Source of the DNA: a virus
Lineage: Duplodnaviria > Heunggongvirae > Uroviricota > Caudoviricetes
Reading direction: 5' to 3' (one strand)
Virus record (IMG/VR): IMGVR_UViG_2695420847_000016
Coordinates: 1-8,083 of that record
Length of the DNA: 8,083 nt
Position numbers and translations under genes: made by a program. Under the pieces are notes generated by a model. That model made no database searches, was not told the origin of the DNA, and saw only the letters and a list, made by a program, of their open reading frames with translations. Below, piece after piece: positions 1 to 8,083 of this stretch. Position 1 is the stretch's first letter. The number at the start of each line of letters is the position of its first letter.

Positions 1-500
1 CGCGTCGTTCTCTGGGATTACCGGCGGAAAAAATCCGCTCCGTATACCGTGAAAGCGACATCATACCGGGAGAACAGACCGCCACCAGCATACTGAAGCA
101 GCGCACAAAAAATATTGCGCTACCGCCTCACACCCACCAGCAACAGAACCCACCACAGGAAAAGACGGTGGTCAGCATTGCCGTTGATCCGGAGTCTCCG
201 GAATCCTTCATGAAACGACCTAAACGTCGCCTCTGGGTAAATGAGAAATACACACGCTGGGTAAAGACACAGCCGTGTGCGTGTTGTGGTAAGCCAGCGG
301 ACGATCCTCATCATCTGATTGGTCATGGTCAGGGTGGAATGGGAACAAAATCCCACGATATTTTCACGCTACCGCTGTGTCGGGAGCATCACAACGAGCT
401 TCATGCGGATCCGCTGGCGTTCGAAGAAAAGCATGGTTCCCAGGTTGATTTAATTTTTCGTTTTCTTGATCACGCTTTTGCAACCGGCGTGCTCGGGTAA
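1..500 (+). CDS. Phage zinc-finger protein of the YdfU/YbcO (DUF968/DUF1364-like) type; 5' end lies outside the window
   Basis: The frame is open from base 3 to TAA at 498-500; the ORF track shows only the internal GTG at 168. The C-terminal part has a Cys/His pattern (CACCGKP...HH...GTK...CREHH). The gene sits directly upstream of rusA, as in lambdoid nin regions. Family assignment is from motif and context, not a search. Confidence 0.6.
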   Translation, partial: RRSLGLPAEKIRSVYRESDIIPGEQTATSILKQRTKNIALPPHTHQQQNPPQEKTVVSIAVDPESPESFMKRPKRRLWVNEKYTRWVKTQPCACCGKPADDPHHLIGHGQGGMGTKSHDIFTLPLCREHHNELHADPLAFEEKHGSQVDLIFRFLDHAFATGVLG

Positions 501-512
501 AAGAGGTTACTG

Positions 513-884
513 ATGCGTATAGAGTTTGTTTTGCCTTACCCGCCGACGGTGAACACCTACTGGCGACGTCGTGGCAGCACATATTTTGTATCAAAAGCCG
601 GTGAGCGTTATCGCCGGGCTGTGGCGCTTATTGTTCGCCAGCAGCGGCTGAAATTAAGCCTGTCCGGACGGCTGGCAATAAAAATTATTGCAGAACCACC
701 GGATAAGCGCCGCCGTGACCTGGACAACATTCTGAAAGCACCGCTGGATGCGCTGACGCATGCGGAAGTGCTCATTGATGACGAGCAGTTTGATGAAATC
801 AATATTGTGCGCGGTCAGCCTGTGCCAGGTGGACGGCTGGGCGTGAAGATTTACGAAATCAGAGGTGGTAACGATGGCGCGTGA
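513..884 (+). CDS. rusA: RusA Holliday-junction resolvase (crossover junction endodeoxyribonuclease)
   Basis: 123-aa ORF with AAGAGG 5 nt upstream of ATG 513. The protein has the RusA-type acidic core ([20 protein letters not shown]) and length matching E. coli RusA. Confidence 0.88.
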
Positions 885-1245
885 TATCCAGATGGTTCTT
901 GAGCGATGGGGGGCATGGGCAGCAAATAATCATGAAGATGTAACATGGCCCTCGATAGCTGCTGGTTTTAAAGGATTAATCCCGACTAAAGTGAAATCAC
1001 GTCCTCAGTGTTCTGATGATGACGCCATGATAATTTGTGGTTGTATGGCACGATTAAACAAGAATAATCAGTATTTGCACGATTTGTTGGTGGATTATTA
1101 CGTAGGTGGAATGACATTTATGGCTCTTGCACGTAAGCATAGATGTTCTGATGGGCTTATTGGTAAAAGGCTTTATAAAGCGGAAGGTATTATTGAAGGA
1201 ATGCTTATGGCTCTGAATGTCCGGTTAGATATGGATATGCGGTAG
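874..1245 (+). CDS. Late-gene antiterminator Q, short (about 125 aa) Q family as in DLP12-type prophages
   Basis: ATG 874 is preceded by AGAGGTGG (861-868) and overlaps the rusA stop (ATGGCGCGTGA). The sequence [25 protein letters not shown]...CGCMARL matches my memory of QuuD-like Q proteins. The track start GTG 865 is probably too far upstream. Confidence 0.8.
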
Positions 1246-1336
1246 GGATATATAGTGATGAGGGTTATGTTTTCTGTGTTTATAATTAACATGTTTATTT
1301 TTTGATGGTCATGTATTGTGGAAGGTAGATAAAATG

Positions 1337-1365
1337 TTGCCTGGTGAATTGAAAATATTGATAAT
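1337..1365 (+). promoter_or_regulatory. Candidate sigma70 promoter (TTGCCT-N17-GATAAT) in the AT-rich spacer between Q and the CPBP gene
   Basis: Hexamer match with 17-bp spacing, about 30 nt upstream of the CPBP ribosome-binding site. It could be the PR'-equivalent late promoter or a cargo promoter. Sequence match only. Confidence 0.25.
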
Positions 1366-1396
1366 CAATCTTCATCATTAAATAAAAGGAGTGCTT

Positions 1397-2215
1397 ATGT
1401 GGATTGTGTTAGTACTGTCACTGTCAACTCTCAGTTGGCATAAGGTAGTGGCTTTTTCATTGTTGACGGTGTCTGTTGTCCTGGCTGTGCTTAATGATAT
1501 TATTGATTGGTCGGTGTTATTTTTTGTTGCTACAATCGTTTTTTTTATTATTTTGAAGTTCAACTGGAAATATAACGCCTGGGCTAAATCTATATATGAA
1601 GTTGGCATAGTTTTATCAGCCATAGCATTATCTTTCCATCTATGGCCAGGGTTTCACAATCCTGTAGTGCTAAATTCTGTTACTGTTGGCCCTCAAAGTA
1701 CTCCCTATACAATGTATTTTAATTTTGATAAAGCGCTGGTGCCATTTTTGTTAGTCCTGTGTACATCTTCTTTGTTTAAAAAAGAAGTAAAATCAGAAGT
1801 GTCTTTGTGGAAGTGGGGGGCTCTGTCGCTCTCTGTTCCTCTTATCCTGTTTTTGGCTGTTTTTTTTGGTGGATTAAAGCCAGAGATTCATTTTCCTGAG
1901 TGGTTGCCAGAGTTTATATTGGCTAATTTGTTTTTTGTGTCTCTGGCAGAGGAATCATTATTTAGAGGGTATATTCAATCACGGCTATCAGAAGTAACGT
2001 CTCCATTGGTTGCATTAATTGTGGCGGCTTTGTTGTTTGGTTTTTATCACTATTCAGGTGGTGCTTTACTTGTATTATTTGCCACGTTATCTGGTGTTGT
2101 GTATGGATTGTCATGGATGTGGAGTGGGCGTTTGTGGGTTGCCACCCTTTTCCATTTTGGTTTGAATCTGTGTCACTTGTTATTCTTTACCTATCCATTT
2201 TTAAAACATAATTGA
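1397..2215 (+). CDS. CPBP-family (CAAX protease / Abi domain) intramembrane metalloprotease
   Basis: AAGGAG (1386-1391) lies 5 nt before ATG 1397; the track start GTG 1391 is 2 codons upstream. The protein is a multi-pass hydrophobic protein with all three CPBP motifs: EExxxR (LAEESLFRGY), FxxxH (FGFYHY) and HxxxN (HFGLNL). The gene is markedly AT-rich compared with the rusA/Q backbone. Confidence 0.8.
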   Translation: MWIVLVLSLSTLSWHKVVAFSLLTVSVVLAVLNDIIDWSVLFFVATIVFFIILKFNWKYNAWAKSIYEVGIVLSAIALSFHLWPGFHNPVVLNSVTVGPQSTPYTMYFNFDKALVPFLLVLCTSSLFKKEVKSEVSLWKWGALSLSVPLILFLAVFFGGLKPEIHFPEWLPEFILANLFFVSLAEESLFRGYIQSRLSEVTSPLVALIVAALLFGFYHYSGGALLVLFATLSGVVYGLSWMWSGRLWVATLFHFGLNLCHLLFFTYPFLKHN

Positions 2216-2295
2216 TTTTTTCTATGGTTTTAAATTTATAAGACTGAAAAATAGCAGGACGTGACATTTGCATGAAAAATATGCACGGCAAAGCA

Positions 2296-2309
2296 TTTAC
2301 GTACGTAAA
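2296..2309. promoter_or_regulatory. Perfect 14-bp palindrome TTTACGTACGTAAA, candidate operator
   Basis: Exact reverse-complement symmetry, in the intergenic region between the CPBP gene and the small winged-helix ORF. Function is inferred only. Confidence 0.2.
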
Positions 2310-2356
2310 AAATCAGGTATGCTGTTAAGAGTGGTTATTTCGCCGCATAGCTTGAC

Positions 2357-2378
2357 CCCGCCTCTGAGCGGGTTTTTT
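2357..2378 (+). terminator. Intrinsic terminator downstream of the CPBP gene
   Basis: CCCGC-CTCTGA-GCGGG hairpin followed by TTTTTT. Confidence 0.5.
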
Positions 2379-2501
2379 GTGCCCGCAAAGTAGCGCAGTG
2401 CGTTAAATGTGCTGGTAGTTATTAATACAGGTCTTTCAGCTTGCTGGCTTTTTCGGCAAGAGTTATTGGTGTGTCACGTTAACCGGAAAGGGTAAAAAGA
2501 C

Positions 2502-2699
2502 ATGCTGAAACAGCAGGATATGACAGAAACCGCCAGAGTTGTGTTTGATGAATTAAGCGTCACCGAACCGGCGACAGTCGGGGAGATTGCGCAGAATACT
2601 TACCTTTCACGCGAACGCTGCCAGTTAATACTGACCCAGCTTGTTATGGCGGGTCTGGCAGACTATCAGTGCGGTTGTTACAGACGCCTTCAGTCCTGA
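2502..2699 (+). CDS. Small winged-helix DNA-binding protein, PapI/FaeA-like (65 aa)
   Basis: ATG 2502 has a GGAAAGGG purine tract upstream. The segment TVGEIAQNTYLSRERCQLILTQLVMAGLA resembles the PapI/FaeA recognition helix region. Only the last ~49 nt are repeated in the second module (4573-4621), so the intact gene is unique to module 1. Confidence 0.5.
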   Translation: MLKQQDMTETARVVFDELSVTEPATVGEIAQNTYLSRERCQLILTQLVMAGLADYQCGCYRRLQS

Positions 2700-2770
2700 A
2701 GGCTTTTTTATTTGTGGTAAATGGGCGGCTGGTGGGTGTTAGCGGCACCTGTCAGTCCTTTGCTTATGTG

Positions 2771-2801
2771 TTGATGATAATTTACCTTTTGGGGCTATAA
2801 T
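2771..2801 (+). promoter_or_regulatory. Candidate promoter for the AraC-family gene (TTGATG ... TATAAT, 19-bp spacer)
   Basis: Perfect -10 hexamer TATAAT at 2796-2801 and a TTGATG -35-like hexamer at 2771-2776. Spacing is suboptimal. The same motif is conserved in copy 2 at 4690-4720. Confidence 0.25.
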
Positions 2802-2836
2802 TGAACTAACCAATTGCTAATGAAAGTAAAATTATA

Positions 2837-3550
2837 ATGGTTGTTGTCTGTTCAGTTATCATGGTTTGCTCCCCAATTAATATTTTTCTTGAAAAGGATA
2901 CGTTGTCACTTAAGCCCGGCTCAGTCGTTCTGGCCACCAAATGCATCAGGGCGCTTTTCCTTATGCATTATGGCAAAGTTAAAATTTTCGATATAAACCA
3001 TTCCATAGTAAGTCAATATCTGGAAATTCAGCATAAGCTGACAAGAACTCATCTGACTGACGTTCCGCTTTATCTGTCACTGGAACCCAACAACCCTGCG
3101 TTGGCTGAGGCTTTAATTACCAGCCAGAGATTTTCCGGAGATACCACGGATATGTTTCTTATGATGGCATGCCTGTCGCTGTTTGAATCAGATGAACGGA
3201 TATTATTATTTTTAAGTGGATGTTTATCCAGTATAAGTACCAAAGTCAGGGCGATAATTCAGACAGATATATCAGCAAGCTGGACGCTTGGTGCGATTGC
3301 GTTACGCCTGCATATGAGTGAGAGTTTGTTAAAGATAAAACTGAAAAATGAAGGGCACATGTTCAGTCGCTTGTTGCTGGAAGAGCGGATGCGTGTTGCT
3401 GTGAATATGTTATGTTCCCGGCATGGATATGGACAGGCTGTAGCAGAAAAATGCGGTTATTCAAGCTGGTCCTACTTTATTTCTGTATTTCACCGCTATT
3501 ATGGCTTCCCGCCAGACAGATATGTATCCAGGCAAGGGCTTGATTATTGA
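2837..3550 (+). CDS. AraC/XylS-family transcriptional regulator (prophage-encoded, paralog 1)
   Basis: 237-aa ORF with a C-terminal double HTH typical of AraC family (WTLGAIALRLHMSESLL ... YGQAVAEKCGYSSWSYFISVFHRYYGFPPDRY). AT-rich. The start could instead be ATG 2861. Confidence 0.8.
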   Translation: MVVVCSVIMVCSPINIFLEKDTLSLKPGSVVLATKCIRALFLMHYGKVKIFDINHSIVSQYLEIQHKLTRTHLTDVPLYLSLEPNNPALAEALITSQRFSGDTTDMFLMMACLSLFESDERILLFLSGCLSSISTKVRAIIQTDISASWTLGAIALRLHMSESLLKIKLKNEGHMFSRLLLEERMRVAVNMLCSRHGYGQAVAEKCGYSSWSYFISVFHRYYGFPPDRYVSRQGLDY

Positions 3551-3578
3551 TTTTCATCTGATTATTATTTTTTGACCC

Positions 3579-3654
3579 GGCCCTTTAGCTCAGTGGTGAG
3601 AGCGAGCGACTCATAATCGCCAGGTCGCTGGTTCAAATCCAGCAAGGGCCACCA
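3579..3654 (+). tRNA. ileZ: tRNA-Ile2 (anticodon CAU, lysidine type), 76 nt with encoded CCA
   Basis: Cloverleaf built by hand: acceptor GGCCCTT/AAGGGCC, D-stem GCTC/GAGC, anticodon loop CTCATAA, T-loop TTCAAAT. Close to E. coli ileX rather than elongator tRNA-Met. The symbol is by analogy with the Stx-phage tRNA cluster. Confidence 0.8.
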
Positions 3655-3661
3655 TCACATA

Positions 3662-3738
3662 CCGCCATTAGCTCATCAGGAAAGAGCGCCAGCTTTCGAA
3701 GCTGGTTGCGCGGAGTTCGGGTCCCCGAAGGCGGTCCA
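3662..3738 (+). tRNA. argN: tRNA-Arg (anticodon UCG), copy with stem and T-loop irregularities
   Basis: Anticodon loop TTTCGAA between the CCAGC/GCTGG stem. It carries an A-A mismatch in the acceptor stem, an A-C mismatch in the T-stem, and T-loop TTCGGGT (G at the usually conserved A58). It may be impaired. The symbol is by analogy only. Confidence 0.6.
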
Positions 3739-3751
3739 TTATCTGTATCCT

Positions 3752-3828
3752 GCGTTGTTAGCTCAGCCGGACAGAGCAATTGCCTTCTAAGCAATCGGTC
3801 ACTGGTTCGAATCCAGTACAACGCGCCA
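3752..3828 (+). tRNA. argO: tRNA-Arg (anticodon UCU), canonical copy
   Basis: Acceptor GCGTTGT/ACAACGC, anticodon loop CTTCTAA, T-arm ACTGG-TTCGAAT-CCAGT, encoded CCA. Resembles E. coli argU-type tRNA. Confidence 0.85.
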
Positions 3829-3842
3829 CACTTATTTTCCCT

Positions 3843-3868
3843 GGCTCGCTTTTGCGGGCCTTTTTTTT
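3843..3868 (+). terminator. Intrinsic terminator after tRNA cluster 1
   Basis: GGCTCGC-TTTT-GCGGGCC hairpin (one G-U pair) followed by a run of 8 T. Confidence 0.6.
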
Positions 3869-3933
3869 AAATATCTCACAATTCAGGCGGTTGACTGTTG
3901 TCTGGTTTGCGGGGAGTTTGTTAAAAGAAACTG

Positions 3934-4041
3934 GCATGGTGAATCCCCCTGTGCGGAGGGGCGATCAGCAACCAGGTATATGGGATAATCGCGGATTCAG
4001 GTGCTGATACTGAATTCACCGGGAGGCACCCGGCACCATGC
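3934..4041. repeat. 108-bp dyad-symmetric element, copy 1 (100% identical to 6548-6655)
   Basis: Base-by-base comparison shows the two copies are identical. Ends are inverted repeats GCATGGTG...CACCATGC, with internal inverted repeats GGTGAAT/ATTCACC and CCCCT/AGGGG. Flanking sequences are only loosely similar. Confidence 0.8.
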
Positions 4042-4101
4042 TTTGCCACAAAAGTGTTGTTTCTGTTTTTCTCAAACTATCATCGTTATCCCTTTATTTC
4101 C

Positions 4102-4128
4102 GGCTGCGCATGGCGTGGCCTTTTTTTT
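4102..4128 (+). terminator. Intrinsic terminator upstream of the nanS-p fragment
   Basis: GGCTGCGC-ATG-GCGTGGCC hairpin with two wobble pairs, followed by 8 T. A related hairpin recurs at 6800-6825. Confidence 0.45.
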
Positions 4129-4214
4129 ACGACCAGCCACTGGCAGATGGCCATCCTGTAATTTGATTCCGGTTCCGGCTTTTTAACTCTGTTCCTGTAC
4201 ACGGGAGAAATTCG

Positions 4215-4739
4215 ATGTCGATTAAACATTATGATGTTGTCAGGGCGGCGTCGCCGTCAGACCTTGCGGAAAAGCTGACACATAAACTGAAAGAGGGCTG
4301 GCAGCCGTTTGGTAGTCCGGTGGCCATAACCCCTTATACCCTGATGCAGGCGATTGCAGCAGAAGGTGATGTGGTGGTCAGTGGTGCAACTGAGCCGGAG
4401 TGGTACTACGTCATCGTACTGGCCGGGCAGTCCAATGCCATGGCTTACGGTGAAGGGCTTCCGCTGCCGGATTCATACGATGCTCCGGATCCGCGTATTA
4501 AACAGCTGGCGCGCCGCAGTACAGTGACGCCGGGTGGGGCTGCCTGCAGATATAACGATATTATTCCGGCACGGGTCTGGCAGACTATCAGTGCGGTTGT
4601 TACAGACGCCTTCAGTCCTGAAGGCTTTTTATTTGTGGTGAATGGGCGGCTGGTGGGGGGGCGACACCTGTCAGTCCTTTGCTTATGTGTTGATGATAAT
4701 TTACCTTTTGGGGCTATAATTGAGCTAACCAATTGCTAA
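4215..4739 (+). pseudogene. nanS: 5' fragment (about 119 codons) of a nanS-p-type sialate O-acetylesterase gene fused out of frame to the edge of module copy 2
   Basis: The N-terminal sequence is near-identical to the ORFs at 6922 and 7548 up to ...RYNDIIPA (through nt 4570). From 4573 the DNA is the repeat also found at 2651 onward, so the ORF tail (RVWQTISAVV...) is read-through of sequence that is noncoding or in another frame in copy 1. Confidence 0.6.
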
Positions 4740-4755
4740 TGAAAGTAAAATTATA

Positions 4756-5469
4756 ATGGCTGTTGTCTGTTCAGTTATCATGGTTTGCTCCCCAATTAAT
4801 ATTTTTCTTGAAAAGGATACGTTGTCACTTAAGCCAGGCTCAGTTGTTCTGGCCACCAAATGCATCAGGGAGCTTTTCCTTATGCATTATGGCAAAGTTA
4901 AAATTGTCGATATAAGCGAATCCGTCGTAAGTCAATATCTGGAAAGTCAGCATAAGCTGACGAGGACTCGTCTGACTGACATTCCGCTTTACCTGTTGCT
5001 GGAACCCAACAATCCTGCGTTGGCTGCGGCTTTAATTACCAGCCAGGGATTTTCCGGAGAGGCCACGGATATGTTTCTTATGATGGCCTGCCTGTCTCTG
5101 TTTGAAACAGATGAACGGATGTCATTGTTTTTAAGTGGATGTTTATCCAGCATAAGTGCCAAAGTCAGGGCGATAATTCAGACAGATATATCAGCAAGCT
5201 GGACGCTTGGTGCGATTGCTCTACAGTTGCATATGAGTGAGAGTTTGTTAAAGACAAAACTGAAAAATGAAGGGGGCATGTTCAGTCGCTTGTTGCTGGA
5301 AGAGCGGATGCGTGTTGCTGTAAATATGTTATGTTCCCGGCATGGATATGGACAGGCTATAGCAGAAAAATGCGGTTATTCAAGCAGGTCCTACTTTATT
5401 TCTGTATTTCACCGCTATTATGGCTTCCCGCCAGACAGATATGTATCCAGGCAAGGGCTTGATTATTGA
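4756..5469 (+). CDS. AraC/XylS-family transcriptional regulator (paralog 2)
   Basis: 237 aa, same length as paralog 1, with 23 amino-acid differences by manual alignment. 17 of these fall in the N-terminal 135 residues. Confidence 0.8.
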   Translation: MAVVCSVIMVCSPINIFLEKDTLSLKPGSVVLATKCIRELFLMHYGKVKIVDISESVVSQYLESQHKLTRTRLTDIPLYLLLEPNNPALAAALITSQGFSGEATDMFLMMACLSLFETDERMSLFLSGCLSSISAKVRAIIQTDISASWTLGAIALQLHMSESLLKTKLKNEGGMFSRLLLEERMRVAVNMLCSRHGYGQAIAEKCGYSSRSYFISVFHRYYGFPPDRYVSRQGLDY

Positions 5470-5497
5470 TTTTCATCTGATTATTATTTTTTGGCTC

Positions 5498-5573
5498 GGC
5501 CCTTTAGCTCAGTGGTGAGAGCGAGCGACTCATAATCGCCAGGTCGCTGGTTCAAATCCAGCAAGGGCCACCA
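5498..5573 (+). tRNA. ileZ: tRNA-Ile2 (anticodon CAU), second copy
   Basis: Identical in sequence to 3579-3654. Confidence 0.8.
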
Positions 5574-5582
5574 TATTACATA

Positions 5583-5659
5583 CCGCTATTAGCTCATCGG
5601 GACAGAGCGCCAGCCTTCGAAGCTGGCTGCGCGGGGTTCAAGTCCCCGATGGCGGTCCA
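5583..5659 (+). tRNA. argN: tRNA-Arg (anticodon UCG), canonical copy
   Basis: Acceptor CCGCTAT/ATGGCGG (one G-U pair), anticodon loop CTTCGAA, T-arm CGGGG-TTCAAGT-CCCCG fully paired, encoded CCA. Confidence 0.75.
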
Positions 5660-5672
5660 TTATCAGCATCAT

Positions 5673-5749
5673 GCGTTGTTAGCTCAGTCGGACAGAGCAA
5701 TTGCCTTCTAAGCAATCGGTCAGTGGTTAGACTCCACTACAACGCGCCA
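5673..5749 (+). tRNA. argO: tRNA-Arg (anticodon UCU), copy with atypical T-loop
   Basis: Same acceptor and anticodon arm as 3752-3828, but the T-arm is AGTGG-TTAGACT-CCACT. The stem change is compensatory; the loop has A in place of the conserved C56. Confidence 0.65.
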
Positions 5750-5762
5750 CACTTATTTTCCA

Positions 5763-5786
5763 GGCTCGCTTCGGCGGGCCTTTTTT
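5763..5786 (+). terminator. Intrinsic terminator after tRNA cluster 2
   Basis: GGCTCGC-TTCG-GCGGGCC hairpin followed by TTTTTT. Confidence 0.6.
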
Positions 5787-5918
5787 GTATCTGCGCCACG
5801 CCCGGCGCATATCAACCACAGAGCCTTTCGGGGGTGAGCTTACGGAGTGGTCAGTGTGACTTTCTCTGTGGGCAGATCGCTCCCGGGCGTTGGCTCACCC
5901 ACCCAAAGGAACGTCACG

Positions 5919-6350
5919 ATGTTTGGAATCTTCAAAAAGAAAACCCGCAGAGCGGCAGCGGAAATTAAAAAGTTTGAGAAACGCGATCTGGCACAGGCGG
6001 TGATTAACGCTGCATACCTGGTGGCCTATGCAGATGGTGAATGCGAGGCATCCGAGAAAGCGAAGATCGAACAGGTCTTACGTAATCAGCCTGCGTTGTC
6101 TGCGTTTACCTCGGAAATTAATGCGATTAGCGCAACCATTATCGGTCAGCTGGATACCAATTTTAAAATTGGTCGTCGTGCCGCGTTACGCGAGATTGAG
6201 GATGTGAAACACGATACGCGTGAAGCGGAAGATGTGCTGGATGTGGCGGTGGCCATTGCGGAGGCAGACGGCGAAATTGAGCCGGAAGAGCGCAAGGTGC
6301 TGGAAGAGATTGCCGGTGTTCTGGGTCTTCGTCTGGAGAATCACCTGTGA
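5919..6350 (+). CDS. TerB-family (tellurite-resistance TerB-like) protein, 143 aa
   Basis: ATG 5919 has AAAGGA 8 nt upstream; the track start GTG 5847 is probably not used. Two acidic DG-containing repeats (AYADGECEASEKAKIEQVL and AEADGEIEPEERKVLEEIAGVLGL) match the layout of plasmid TerB as I remember it. Confidence 0.7.
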   Translation: MFGIFKKKTRRAAAEIKKFEKRDLAQAVINAAYLVAYADGECEASEKAKIEQVLRNQPALSAFTSEINAISATIIGQLDTNFKIGRRAALREIEDVKHDTREAEDVLDVAVAIAEADGEIEPEERKVLEEIAGVLGLRLENHL

Positions 6351-6514
6351 CGGTAAAACTGCGCCTGGCTGTGGCTGCACTCCTGCTGTTTCTGGTGGTG
6401 ATGGTGGATCTCACCAGCAGAATCATGTCGGTGCTGGCGGATGGGGTGCTGGTCTGCGGCATTGTGGTATTGCTGTGGCCGGTGATAAAAAGAAACAGCC
6501 TGCATAATGCTTGA
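6347..6514 (+). CDS. Hypothetical small hydrophobic protein (about 55 aa, two predicted membrane-spanning segments), translationally coupled to the TerB-like gene
   Basis: Not in the ORF track. GTG 6347 overlaps the TerB stop (GTGA) with GGAGA 7 nt upstream; an alternative start is ATG 6401. The frame runs to TGA 6512-6514 and encodes ...LRLAVAALLLFLVVMVDLTSRIMSVLADGVLVCGIVVLLWPVIKRNSLHNA. Confidence 0.35.
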   Translation: MTVKLRLAVAALLLFLVVMVDLTSRIMSVLADGVLVCGIVVLLWPVIKRNSLHNA

Positions 6515-6547
6515 TTTTTTTGTTTGCTGTTTATTAAAAACACTTCT

Positions 6548-6655
6548 GCATGGTGAATCCCCCTGTGCGGAGGGGCGATCAGCAACCAGGTATATGGGAT
6601 AATCGCGGATTCAGGTGCTGATACTGAATTCACCGGGAGGCACCCGGCACCATGC
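6548..6655. repeat. 108-bp dyad-symmetric element, copy 2 (100% identical to 3934-4041)
   Basis: See copy 1. It lies 267 bp upstream of the nanS-p start at 6922. Confidence 0.8.
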
Positions 6656-6680
6656 AAGAAAAAGAATGTGCATGCAAACA

Positions 6681-6706
6681 TGCCCCTCTCCGGAGGGGCA
6701 TTTTTT
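6681..6706 (+). terminator. Intrinsic terminator
   Basis: TGCCCCTC-TCCG-GAGGGGCA hairpin (8 bp) followed by TTTTTT. Confidence 0.6.
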
Positions 6707-6712
6707 ATGGGT

Positions 6713-6737
6713 AAAAAATGCCCGAATGGGTTCGGGC
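6713..6737 (-). terminator. Possible minus-strand intrinsic terminator facing the one at 6681-6706
   Basis: GCCCGAA-TGGG-TTCGGGC hairpin with AAAAAAT on its 5' side on the + strand, which is a T-run on the minus strand. No minus-strand gene is evident to its right. Confidence 0.3.
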
Positions 6738-6799
6738 AATAGCATGAGATACTGATATTGTTGTGTTGTTATCGTGTGGATTTTAACCAGGGTTTATCA

Positions 6800-6825
6800 G
6801 GCTGCGCAACTGCGTGGCCTTTTTT
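6800..6825 (+). terminator. Intrinsic terminator in the nanS-p leader
   Basis: GGCTGCGC-AACT-GCGTGGCC hairpin followed by TTTTTT; a diverged homolog of the hairpin at 4102-4128. Confidence 0.5.
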
Positions 6826-6866
6826 CATTTCTTGGGCTGTAGTCCCCGTGTGTCATTCAGGCTTCC

Positions 6867-7492
6867 GGACTACAGCCCACTCCATATCTGATTTAATACA
6901 CTATCCCGGCCGGGAGGAATAATGACATTTAAACATTATGATGTTGTCAGGGCGGCGTCGCCGTCAGACCTTGCGGAAAAGCTGACACACAAACTGAAAG
7001 AGGGCTGGCAGCCGTTTGGTAGTCCGGTGGCCATAACCCCTTATACCCTGATGCAGGCGATTACAGCAGAAGGTGATGTGGTGGTCAGTGGTGCAACTGA
7101 GCCGGATTGGTACTACGTCATCGTACTGGCCGGGCAGTCCAATGCCATGGCTTACGGTGAAGGGCTTCCGCTGCCGGATTCATACGATGCTCCGGATCCG
7201 CGTATTAAACAGCTGGCGCGCCGCAGTACAGTGACGCCGGGTGGGGCTGCCTGCAGATATAACGATATTATTCCGGCCGACCACTGCCTGCATGATGTGC
7301 AGGATATGAGTACGCTGAATCATCCGAAGGCAGACCTGAGCAAAGGGCAGTACGGCTGTGTCGGCCAGGGCTTACATATTGCCAAAAAACTGCTTCCGTA
7401 TATCCCGAATAACGCGGGGATCCTGCTGGTACCATGCTGTCGTGGTGGTTCGGCATTCACCCAGGGCGCGGAGGGGACATTCAGTGCGGACA
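6867..7492. repeat. Tandem duplication unit 1 (626 bp: 55 bp of leader plus the first ~190 codons of nanS-p)
   Basis: The sequence from 6867 recurs from 7493 with a constant offset of 626 bp to the window end. At least four single-base differences were seen, for example at 7205/7831, 7250/7876, 7268/7894 and 7396/8022. Confidence 0.85.
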
Positions 7493-7548
7493 GGACTACA
7501 GCCCACTCCATATCTGATTTAATACACTATCCCGGCCGGGAGGAATAA
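6922..7548 (+). pseudogene. nanS: nanS-p-type sialate O-acetylesterase, N-terminal 190 codons ended by the tandem-duplication junction (208-codon ORF)
   Basis: GGGAGGAATA lies before ATG 6922. The protein has a DUF1737-like N-terminus and the start of an esterase domain with a GQSN motif (VLAGQSNAMAYGEG). After ...TFSAD the frame runs into the duplicated leader (RTTAHSISDLIHYPGREE, stop). Confidence 0.55.
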
Positions 7549-8083
7549 TGACATTTAAACATTATGATGTTGTCAGGGCGGCGTCGCCGTCAGACCTTGC
7601 GGAAAAGCTGACACACAAACTGAAAGAGGGCTGGCAGCCGTTTGGTAGTCCGGTGGCCATAACCCCTTATACCCTGATGCAGGCGATTACAGCAGAAGGT
7701 GATGTGGTGGTCAGTGGTGCAACTGAGCCGGATTGGTACTACGTCATCGTACTGGCCGGGCAGTCCAATGCCATGGCTTACGGTGAAGGGCTTCCGCTGC
7801 CGGATTCATACGATGCTCCGGATCCGCGCATTAAACAGCTGGCGCGCCGCAGTACAGTTACGCCGGGTGGGGCTGCATGCAGATATAACGATATTATTCC
7901 GGCCGACCACTGCCTGCATGATGTGCAGGATATGAGTACGCTGAATCATCCGAAGGCAGACCTGAGCAAAGGGCAGTACGGCTGTGTCGGCCAGGGCTTA
8001 CATATTGCCAAAAAACTGCTCCCGTATATCCCGAATAACGCGGGGATCCTGCTGGTACCATGCTGTCGTGGTGGTTCGGCATT
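7493..8083. repeat. Tandem duplication unit 2 (partial; runs off the window)
   Basis: See unit 1. Confidence 0.85.
7548..8083 (+). CDS. nanS: nanS-p-type sialate O-acetylesterase (prophage paralog), 3' end outside the window
   Basis: ATG 7548 overlaps the TAA of the truncated copy (TAATGA). The reading frame is open to the window end, and the sequence is ~99% identical to 6922-7457. Confidence 0.7.
   Translation, partial: MTFKHYDVVRAASPSDLAEKLTHKLKEGWQPFGSPVAITPYTLMQAITAEGDVVVSGATEPDWYYVIVLAGQSNAMAYGEGLPLPDSYDAPDPRIKQLARRSTVTPGGAACRYNDIIPADHCLHDVQDMSTLNHPKADLSKGQYGCVGQGLHIAKKLLPYIPNNAGILLVPCCRGGSA

Follow-up and report, generated by a model that had tools for sequence, protein, structure and literature searches.

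The Psr proteins are prophage-encoded AraC/XylS regulators that activate gadE/yhiF, and PsrB in addition binds the promoters of hdeA and gadE (PMC10877973, PMC8565820, citing Tree et al. 2011 and Yang et al. 2015); acid resistance goes up as a result, and type III secretion of the enterocyte effacement locus (LEE) is indirectly repressed (PMC10877973, PMC8565820). Deletion of psrA leads to a secretion phenotype, psrB is active when supplied in trans (PMC10877973, PMC8565820), and the activities of the two proteins on gadE/yhiF overlap (PMC10877973). PsrB (z2104, OI-57) is PsrA's nearest homolog, at 90% identity (PMC10877973, PMC8565820), and the Sakai gene ECs_1087, in prophage Sp4, was named psrA in a 2026 paper (PMC13502914). 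Here we examined an 8,083-nucleotide stretch of DNA, the IMG/VR virus record IMGVR_UViG_2695420847_000016 (referred to as the window), in which an initial annotation had seen a module of one AraC-type gene and three tRNA genes present twice and diverging. Based on our comparisons, the apparent psrA/psrB tandem is, with a probability of about 0.88, a scaffolding artifact in which separate contigs were joined over unknown bases.

The repeat itself was easily recovered. Self-BLAST of the window aligned positions 2650-3866 with 4572-5786 over 1219 columns, of which 93.8% are identical and 70 mismatched, and opened 5 gaps; a global alignment extended by four bases (2650-3870 against 4572-5790) contained 78 differing columns. 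Both blocks hold a 237-aa open reading frame (ORF) of the AraC/XylS type, at 2837-3550 (AraC1) and 4756-5469 (AraC2), together with a tRNA(CAT), a tRNA-Arg(TCG) and a tRNA-Arg(TCT). The description of two colinear, diverged blocks was therefore accurate, its coordinates being correct to within one base; the count of 23 differences between the two proteins was reproduced. Both proteins pass the Pfam gathering scores and are predicted to be AraC/XylS regulators: AraC1 scored 36.6 bits for HTH_18 (cut-off 33.6) and 35.4 bits for HTH_AraC (cut-off 26.6), and AraC2 scored 39.8 and 50.3 bits, respectively, the C-terminal DNA-binding match covering residues 155-230.

AraC1 is identical at 236 of 237 residues to the extended ORF of Sakai ECs_1087, the single difference being T135 in the window and A135 in Sakai. 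Over 1217 nt, the copy 1 cassette (2650-3866, plus strand) and the psrA cassette in prophage Sp4 of Sakai are 99.67% identical, and the gene order around them, DUF968-RusA-Q-CPBP-orf65-psrA-ileZ-argN-argO-nanS-p, is also the same. AraC1 is thus PsrA, with a function predicted from its sequence. AraC2 matches the AraC gene of EDL933 at 1,905,274 (WP_000301797.1), in the stretch taken for OI-57, at 234 of 237 residues, and is identical throughout (237/237) to WP_000301785.1, an accession common to Z1323HEC0108 and O26 RM10386. The copy 2 cassette (4572-5786, plus strand), which has the same internal layout as copy 1, is 100% identical over 1215 nt to the psrB-type cassette of Z1323HEC0108. AraC2 would accordingly be of the PsrB type. 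Homologous proteins in the databases bear generic names alone, such as "helix-turn-helix domain-containing protein", and the two regulators were named on the strength of papers and of comparison between loci. The two window proteins share 214 of 237 residues (90.3%), and AraC2 is 90.3-90.7% identical to PsrA, matching the published value of 90% (PMC10877973). The TerB-DUF3927-nanS-p order downstream is alike in copy 2 and at the EDL933 locus taken for psrB, whereas the EDL933 locus has two tRNAs (Ile and Arg) in place of the three in the window, and the two proteins differ by three amino acids.

Since the two proteins match the psrA and psrB loci and their identity agrees with the published 90%, the "diverging paralogs" are the already known PsrA/PsrB pair, from separate prophages. 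The suggestion that the two copies came from different phages was in this respect well founded, copy 1 being of the Sakai Sp4 type and copy 2 of the Z1323HEC0108 type. PatE (z0321; ECs_0287 in Sakai; prophage CP-933H/Sp1), which is likewise a prophage-encoded AraC/XylS regulator of acid-resistance genes (PMC10877973), is a different protein from those of the window: it is identical to either copy at only 89 of 249 positions and is found in another prophage context, without the tRNA cluster.

The structure of the window was assessed against CYAO01000067.1 of assembly GCA_001283385.1, a draft contig of which the window is the entire length. The two sequences differ at two of the 8083 bases, 4571 and 7492, where the public record has N and the window has A. 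At the first, sequence of the nanS-p gene (DUF1737/SASA esterase), present as a 356-nt 5' fragment at 4215-4570 on the plus strand, runs to 4570, and the tail of a 65-aa ORF (orf65) starts at 4572, so that copy 2 directly follows the fragment across a single N. The second lies in an apparent tandem repeat of its own, 6867-7457 against 7493-8083 (99.3% identical, 626-bp period), which covers the nanS-p upstream region and 5' end; the N at 7492 is its junction, where nanS-p meets its own upstream region. Each junction also yields a chimeric reading frame: a 174-aa ORF (4215-4739) spans 4571, and a 208-aa ORF (6922-7548) is created by the second repeat.

Collinearity between the window and complete genomes is broken at two places only, and these are exactly the positions of the two Ns; that the agreement arose by chance is very unlikely. 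Since the only two unknown bases are the only two breaks, the record is a scaffold of three pieces, a (1-4570), b (4572-7491) and c (7493-8083), joined without determined sequence across the joins; the public record has N at both 4571 and 7492. The left breakpoint of copy 2 does fall inside nanS-p at the position first reported, and is a single-N join rather than a real breakpoint, as is the junction at 7492. An assembly artifact had been dismissed on the initial reading, and that dismissal did not hold; nor could the physical adjacency of the two copies be confirmed, base 4571 being N and no sequence spanning the junction. Short-read contigs typically end in exact repeats, and exact repeats of sequence elsewhere in the scaffold were found at the end of piece a (170 nt, repeated at 7108-7277), the start of piece b (59 nt, repeated at 2650-2708), the start of piece c (336 nt) and the end of piece c (62 nt).

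Comparison with complete genomes supports the same division. Piece a matches Sakai Sp4 over 1-4041 (99.5% identity) and O39 F8704-2 over 3578-4570 (99.9%); in F8704-2 the nanS-p gene runs on uninterrupted. Piece b (4572-7491) is 99.86% identical to Z1323HEC0108 in one alignment, after which Z1323HEC0108 continues differently from 7492 onward. Piece c (7493-8083) is 100% identical to the same Z1323HEC0108 locus (L003, positions 7296-7886). Single-copy relatives, which the initial annotation had proposed to look for by comparative genomics, do exist, and each piece fits a single-copy prophage layout at 99.5-100% identity. In O145:H28 RM12581 the layout is DUF968-RusA-Q-CPBP-orf65-AraC-tRNA x3-TerB-DUF3927-nanS-p, and that of Sakai Sp4 differs from it in lacking TerB and DUF3927. 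A single-copy order of Q-type antiterminator, orf65, AraC, tRNAs, TerB, DUF3927 and nanS-p was found in Z1323HEC0108, O26 RM10386 and the 1.905 Mb region of EDL933. The order Q...psr-tRNAs-nanS-p-holin/lysozyme, in RM12581, Z1323HEC0108, Sakai, EDL933 and RM10386, places the gene in the late region downstream of Q in lambdoid prophages, as for the Psr family. In complete genomes there is one psr cassette per prophage, between the Q antiterminator region and the nanS-p/lysis genes. Both cassette types (>98% identity) also occur within one genome, in separate prophages 400-670 kb apart, in ML35, FWSEC0002 and 99-3311.

One apparent counterexample was examined. The only locus annotated "AraC family (x2)", in O111:NM 2010C-3053 (L014, positions 3337-5363), might have been a true tandem, but it holds a single psrA-type gene that IS1203 has split, the two AraC fragments being annotated separately.

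The junction at 4571 was searched for directly. A 361-nt query across it reached at least 80% coverage in none of 5,426 complete E. coli genomes (0/5,426), and the best matches end at the junction. The exact junction string had no matches in IMG/VR or in the GTDB representative genomes, the chimeric 174-aa ORF was found in the gene index on no contig other than CYAO01000067.1, and none of the records in the phage collection spanned 80% or more of the window.

We propose that three repeat-bounded short-read contigs (1-4570, 4572-7491 and 7493-8083) were joined end to end over single unknown bases, and that they would derive from the late-regulatory regions of at least two lambdoid prophages in one E. 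coli strain. The scaffolder would have linearized the branches of paralogous repeats. Some scaffolders, SSPACE among them, write a single "n" where an expected overlap fails; a literature search gave no usable statement on this point. The window resembles scaffolding artifacts of short-read assemblies of multi-prophage E. coli in its single-N joins at breaks in collinearity, its repeat-bounded ends and a contig composed entirely of prophage repeats. The divergence between the cassettes, about 6% in DNA and 10% in protein, would then be the ordinary divergence of alleles between prophages rather than a product of change after duplication, and would have been shaped by purifying selection and by recombination between prophages.

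Several points weigh against this explanation. It is from the places where the Ns fall that we infer joins made by a scaffolder. Because such a program does not put two pieces side by side unless some read pairs link them, real adjacency of the pieces is formally possible. The explanation also takes for granted two or more such prophages in this strain. The search at junction 7492 was undiscriminating, because the permuted 150-nt halves, which lie 626 bp apart in normal genes, merge into one place. Finally, the assignment of AraC2 to the PsrB type draws on the estimated place of z2104/OI-57 in resequenced EDL933 and on the published 90% identity rather than on a named PsrB sequence.

The alternative that survives best is a real tandem. 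Two resident prophages would have recombined illegitimately, or exchanged sequence unequally while co-induced, so that the tail of orf65 became attached to a truncated nanS-p and psrA and psrB came to lie 1.9 kb apart in one prophage; the Ns would then stand for uncalled bases. If true, one phage would carry two Psr regulators, six tRNA genes and a truncated nanS-p. The order of pieces chosen by the scaffolder implies some read-pair links between them, lambdoid prophages of enterohemorrhagic E. coli (EHEC) recombine often, as the mosaic psr allele of RM12581 described below exemplifies, and both junctions lack meaningful microhomology, as illegitimate joins would. Such a history would nevertheless have to place both of its rearrangement points on the only two Ns in 8083 nt, to the base, and to account for a second "duplication" with the same signature at 7492 of the same contig, for which a common technical cause is far likelier. 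It also has to contend with pieces that end in exact repeats and with a junction that is absent from the 5,426 complete genomes, IMG/VR and the GTDB representatives, its chimeric ORF occurring in no other assembly. A real, unique junction is normally assembled through and not left as N. A genuine tandem would be recognized by continuous sequence across the junction and by independent recovery elsewhere, and we found neither. We consider a real tandem unlikely.

A contig that mixes two strains, through contamination or a mixed culture, would put the two cassettes in separate genomes. Nothing specific speaks for such a mixture, which is conceivable in principle for any draft assembly, and both cassette types are routine in single complete genomes, so that contamination is not needed; we regard it as highly improbable.

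The initial annotation had also described the differences between the AraC genes as mostly amino-acid-changing and had seen in them a fit to paralog specialization. By the Nei-Gojobori method, the psr pair shows 25.5 non-synonymous differences over 552 sites and 16.5 synonymous differences over 159 sites, so the description is right for the raw counts, where the larger number of non-synonymous sites produces the excess of amino-acid changes. Per site it does not stand: the non-synonymous rate (dN) is 0.048 and the synonymous rate (dS) 0.112, for a dN/dS of 0.43, which differs from 1 (Fisher p=0.02). Residues 1-118 give a ratio of 0.46 and residues 119-237 one of 0.39, and dS is also higher N-terminally (0.133 vs 0.090). 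Seventeen of the 23 replacements had been assigned to the N-terminal half; we count 15 in residues 1-118, 17 when the cut is made at residue 123 and 18 in residues 1-135. The N-terminal excess of replacements is approximately two-fold, with p=0.13 at the mid-point and p=0.17-0.19 at the boundary of the helix-turn-helix (HTH) domain; the sole cut to reach significance is the post-hoc one at residue 135 (p=0.04).

Positive selection on the AraC paralogs was rejected, dN/dS being below 1 overall and in both halves, and significant N-terminal clustering of replacements was rejected at the mid-point and at the domain boundaries. The psr genes are instead under purifying selection. With a low ratio and synonymous changes that share the gradient, the result largely agrees with what the initial annotation had named as a refutation, and the sequences lend the idea of specialization no support. 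The view that this is not a recent duplication did hold, each copy being 99.7-100% identical to alleles that are single in other genomes. A local duplication of the module, after which positive selection would have driven the N-terminal effector/dimerization domains apart, is favored by the raw excess of non-synonymous changes and the 18 of 23 replacements in residues 1-135. It deserves practically no credence in view of these ratios, the dS gradient in the same direction, the weak enrichment and copies so close to singly occurring alleles that their divergence predates any adjacency.

Recombination has left its own trace in the family. The psr allele of RM12581 (L001, positions 8837-9550) is a mosaic, of the PsrB type at diagnostic sites 2-54, of the PsrA type at 55-81 and of the PsrB type again at 9 of the 11 diagnostic sites from 91 to 211. 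The two exceptions are site 103, which has a valine as in EDL933 PsrB, and site 202, which has the AraC1 residue, common to EDL933 PsrB. This pattern indicates gene conversion or recombination between psr alleles of different prophages.

The anatomy of the two cassettes is the same throughout. The last 50 nt of orf65 (2502-2699, plus strand), a hypothetical 65-aa protein with a weak TrmB-like HTH match that is WP_000917737.1 in RM12581 and Z1323HEC0108, are the first bases of the repeated block. Consensus scans gave a terminator-like hairpin where orf65 ends (2686-2703 in copy 1, 4608-4625 in copy 2), a sigma-70-like site (10/12) upstream of psr (2774-2801 and 4693-4720), another promoter-like site ahead of the tRNAs (3540-3568 and 5459-5487) and, past argO, a hairpin that is GC-rich and has a T-run (3843-3860 and 5762-5781). 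In order, each cassette would then hold a first terminator, a promoter-like site, the Psr regulator (AraC/XylS), the three tRNAs ileZ-argN-argO and a closing terminator. These putative sites, consensus matches alone, fit a self-contained, moron-like expression unit. Both psr genes and all six tRNA genes are on the plus strand.

The three tRNAs of copy 1 are an ileZ-type tRNA with anticodon CAT, called tRNA-Ile in RefSeq (3579-3654, Rfam 72.5 bits), an argN-type tRNA-Arg(TCG) of a degenerate-looking allele (3662-3738, 42.9 bits) and an argO-type tRNA-Arg(TCT) (3752-3828, 70.1 bits). Those of copy 2 occupy 5498-5749, with ileZ at 5498-5573, argN at 5583-5659 and argO at 5673-5749. All six were found by ARAGORN and scored 42.9-72.5 bits in Rfam, above the 29-bit gathering score, as expected for tRNAs that are predicted to be functional. 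In anticodons, order and place downstream of Q, the cluster matches ileZ1/argN1/argO1 of Sakai and so the ileZ-argN-argO cluster of Shiga toxin (Stx) and lambdoid phages. It precedes stx in Stx phages, whereas in the window it precedes nanS-p directly or the order TerB-DUF3927-nanS-p. The tRNAs of Stx and lambdoid phages supply decoding of the rare codons AUA and AGA/AGG.

Between the copies, ileZ is identical (0/76 differences) and argN differs at 9 of 77 positions. In the argN of copy 1, the acceptor stem contains an A.A mismatch and the T-stem a further one, and the T-loop reads TTCGGGT, with G at the usually conserved A58; this argN scores 42.9 bits in Rfam vs 56.0 for copy 2. The 289-nt stretch with this argN is 100% identical in F8704-2, and it is therefore a circulating allele, possibly of a decaying tRNA. 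The argO of copy 2 (5673-5749) has the T-loop TTAGACT, with A at the usually conserved C56, and relative to copy 1, one pair of its T-stem has changed in a compensatory way (C3802G with G3816C).

The remaining genes, all on the plus strand, are those of lambdoid late regions, and piece a is the late-regulatory region of a lambdoid prophage. It begins with the 3' part of a DUF968 (NinG-like) gene (168-500; Pfam DUF968, E=5.8e-58), in the same gene order as in Sakai Sp4 and O145 RM12581, followed by a RusA Holliday-junction resolvase gene (513-884; Pfam RusA) and a Q antiterminator gene (865-1245; Pfam Phage_antitermQ, E=4.9e-52), whose RefSeq homologs start at the equivalent of position 874. 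Next is a gene for a CPBP (Rce1-like) intramembrane protease (1391-2215; Pfam PF02517). This gene lies directly downstream of Q, a position kept in Sakai Sp4, RM12581 and O111 prophages. The piece ends in the 5' 356 nt of nanS-p described above. In piece b, which copy 2 opens, a TerB/TciA-like gene (5919-6350) and a DUF3927 gene (6347-6514) follow the tRNAs, an order also found in RM12581, Z1323HEC0108, EDL933 and RM10386. The 5' part of the second nanS-p (6922-7491) ends this piece. Piece c (7493-8083) adds one more allele, the third, of the region upstream of nanS-p together with the 5' end of the gene.

Matches to small RNAs (sRNAs) were also detected. Two belong to the STnc100 family (Rfam RF02076; gathering score 47), at 3905-4077 (108.1 bits) and 6519-6712 (142.7 bits), both on the plus strand, and sit between the tRNAs or TerB and nanS-p. 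A match to the prophage sRNA AgvB (anti-GcvB; Rfam RF02702, 96.5 bits, gathering score 56) lies on the minus strand at 6713-6774, just upstream of the second nanS-p.

The location of psrA in EDL933 deserves a separate remark. Reviews place psrA (z1789) on OI-50/CP-933N. No AraC gene was found in the Sakai prophages Sp6, Sp8 and Sp10 or in the prophage next to potC in resequenced EDL933; one was present in Sakai Sp4 and in the 1.905 Mb region of EDL933. The potC-adjacent EDL933 prophage (L013, NZ_CP008957.1 positions 1625001-1675000) and its Sakai counterpart Sp6 (L009) are without an AraC gene between Q and TerB/nanS-p. The older assignment of the EDL933 psrA locus may reflect an assembly problem in prophage repeats.

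For the window, the display of N as A hid the scaffold joins, and two contigs gave the impression of duplicated, diverging tandem copies, one breakpoint of which lay within a gene. In short draft contigs of EHEC and enteropathogenic E. coli (EPEC) that are made only of lambdoid-prophage repeats, masked Ns should be checked before structure is inferred. For the biology of these prophages the finding is a minor one, as PsrA and PsrB, their identity of approximately 90%, their prophage location and the linked ileZ-argN-argO tRNAs were already described. The mosaic allele of RM12581 shows in addition that recombination of alleles between prophages shapes the Psr family.

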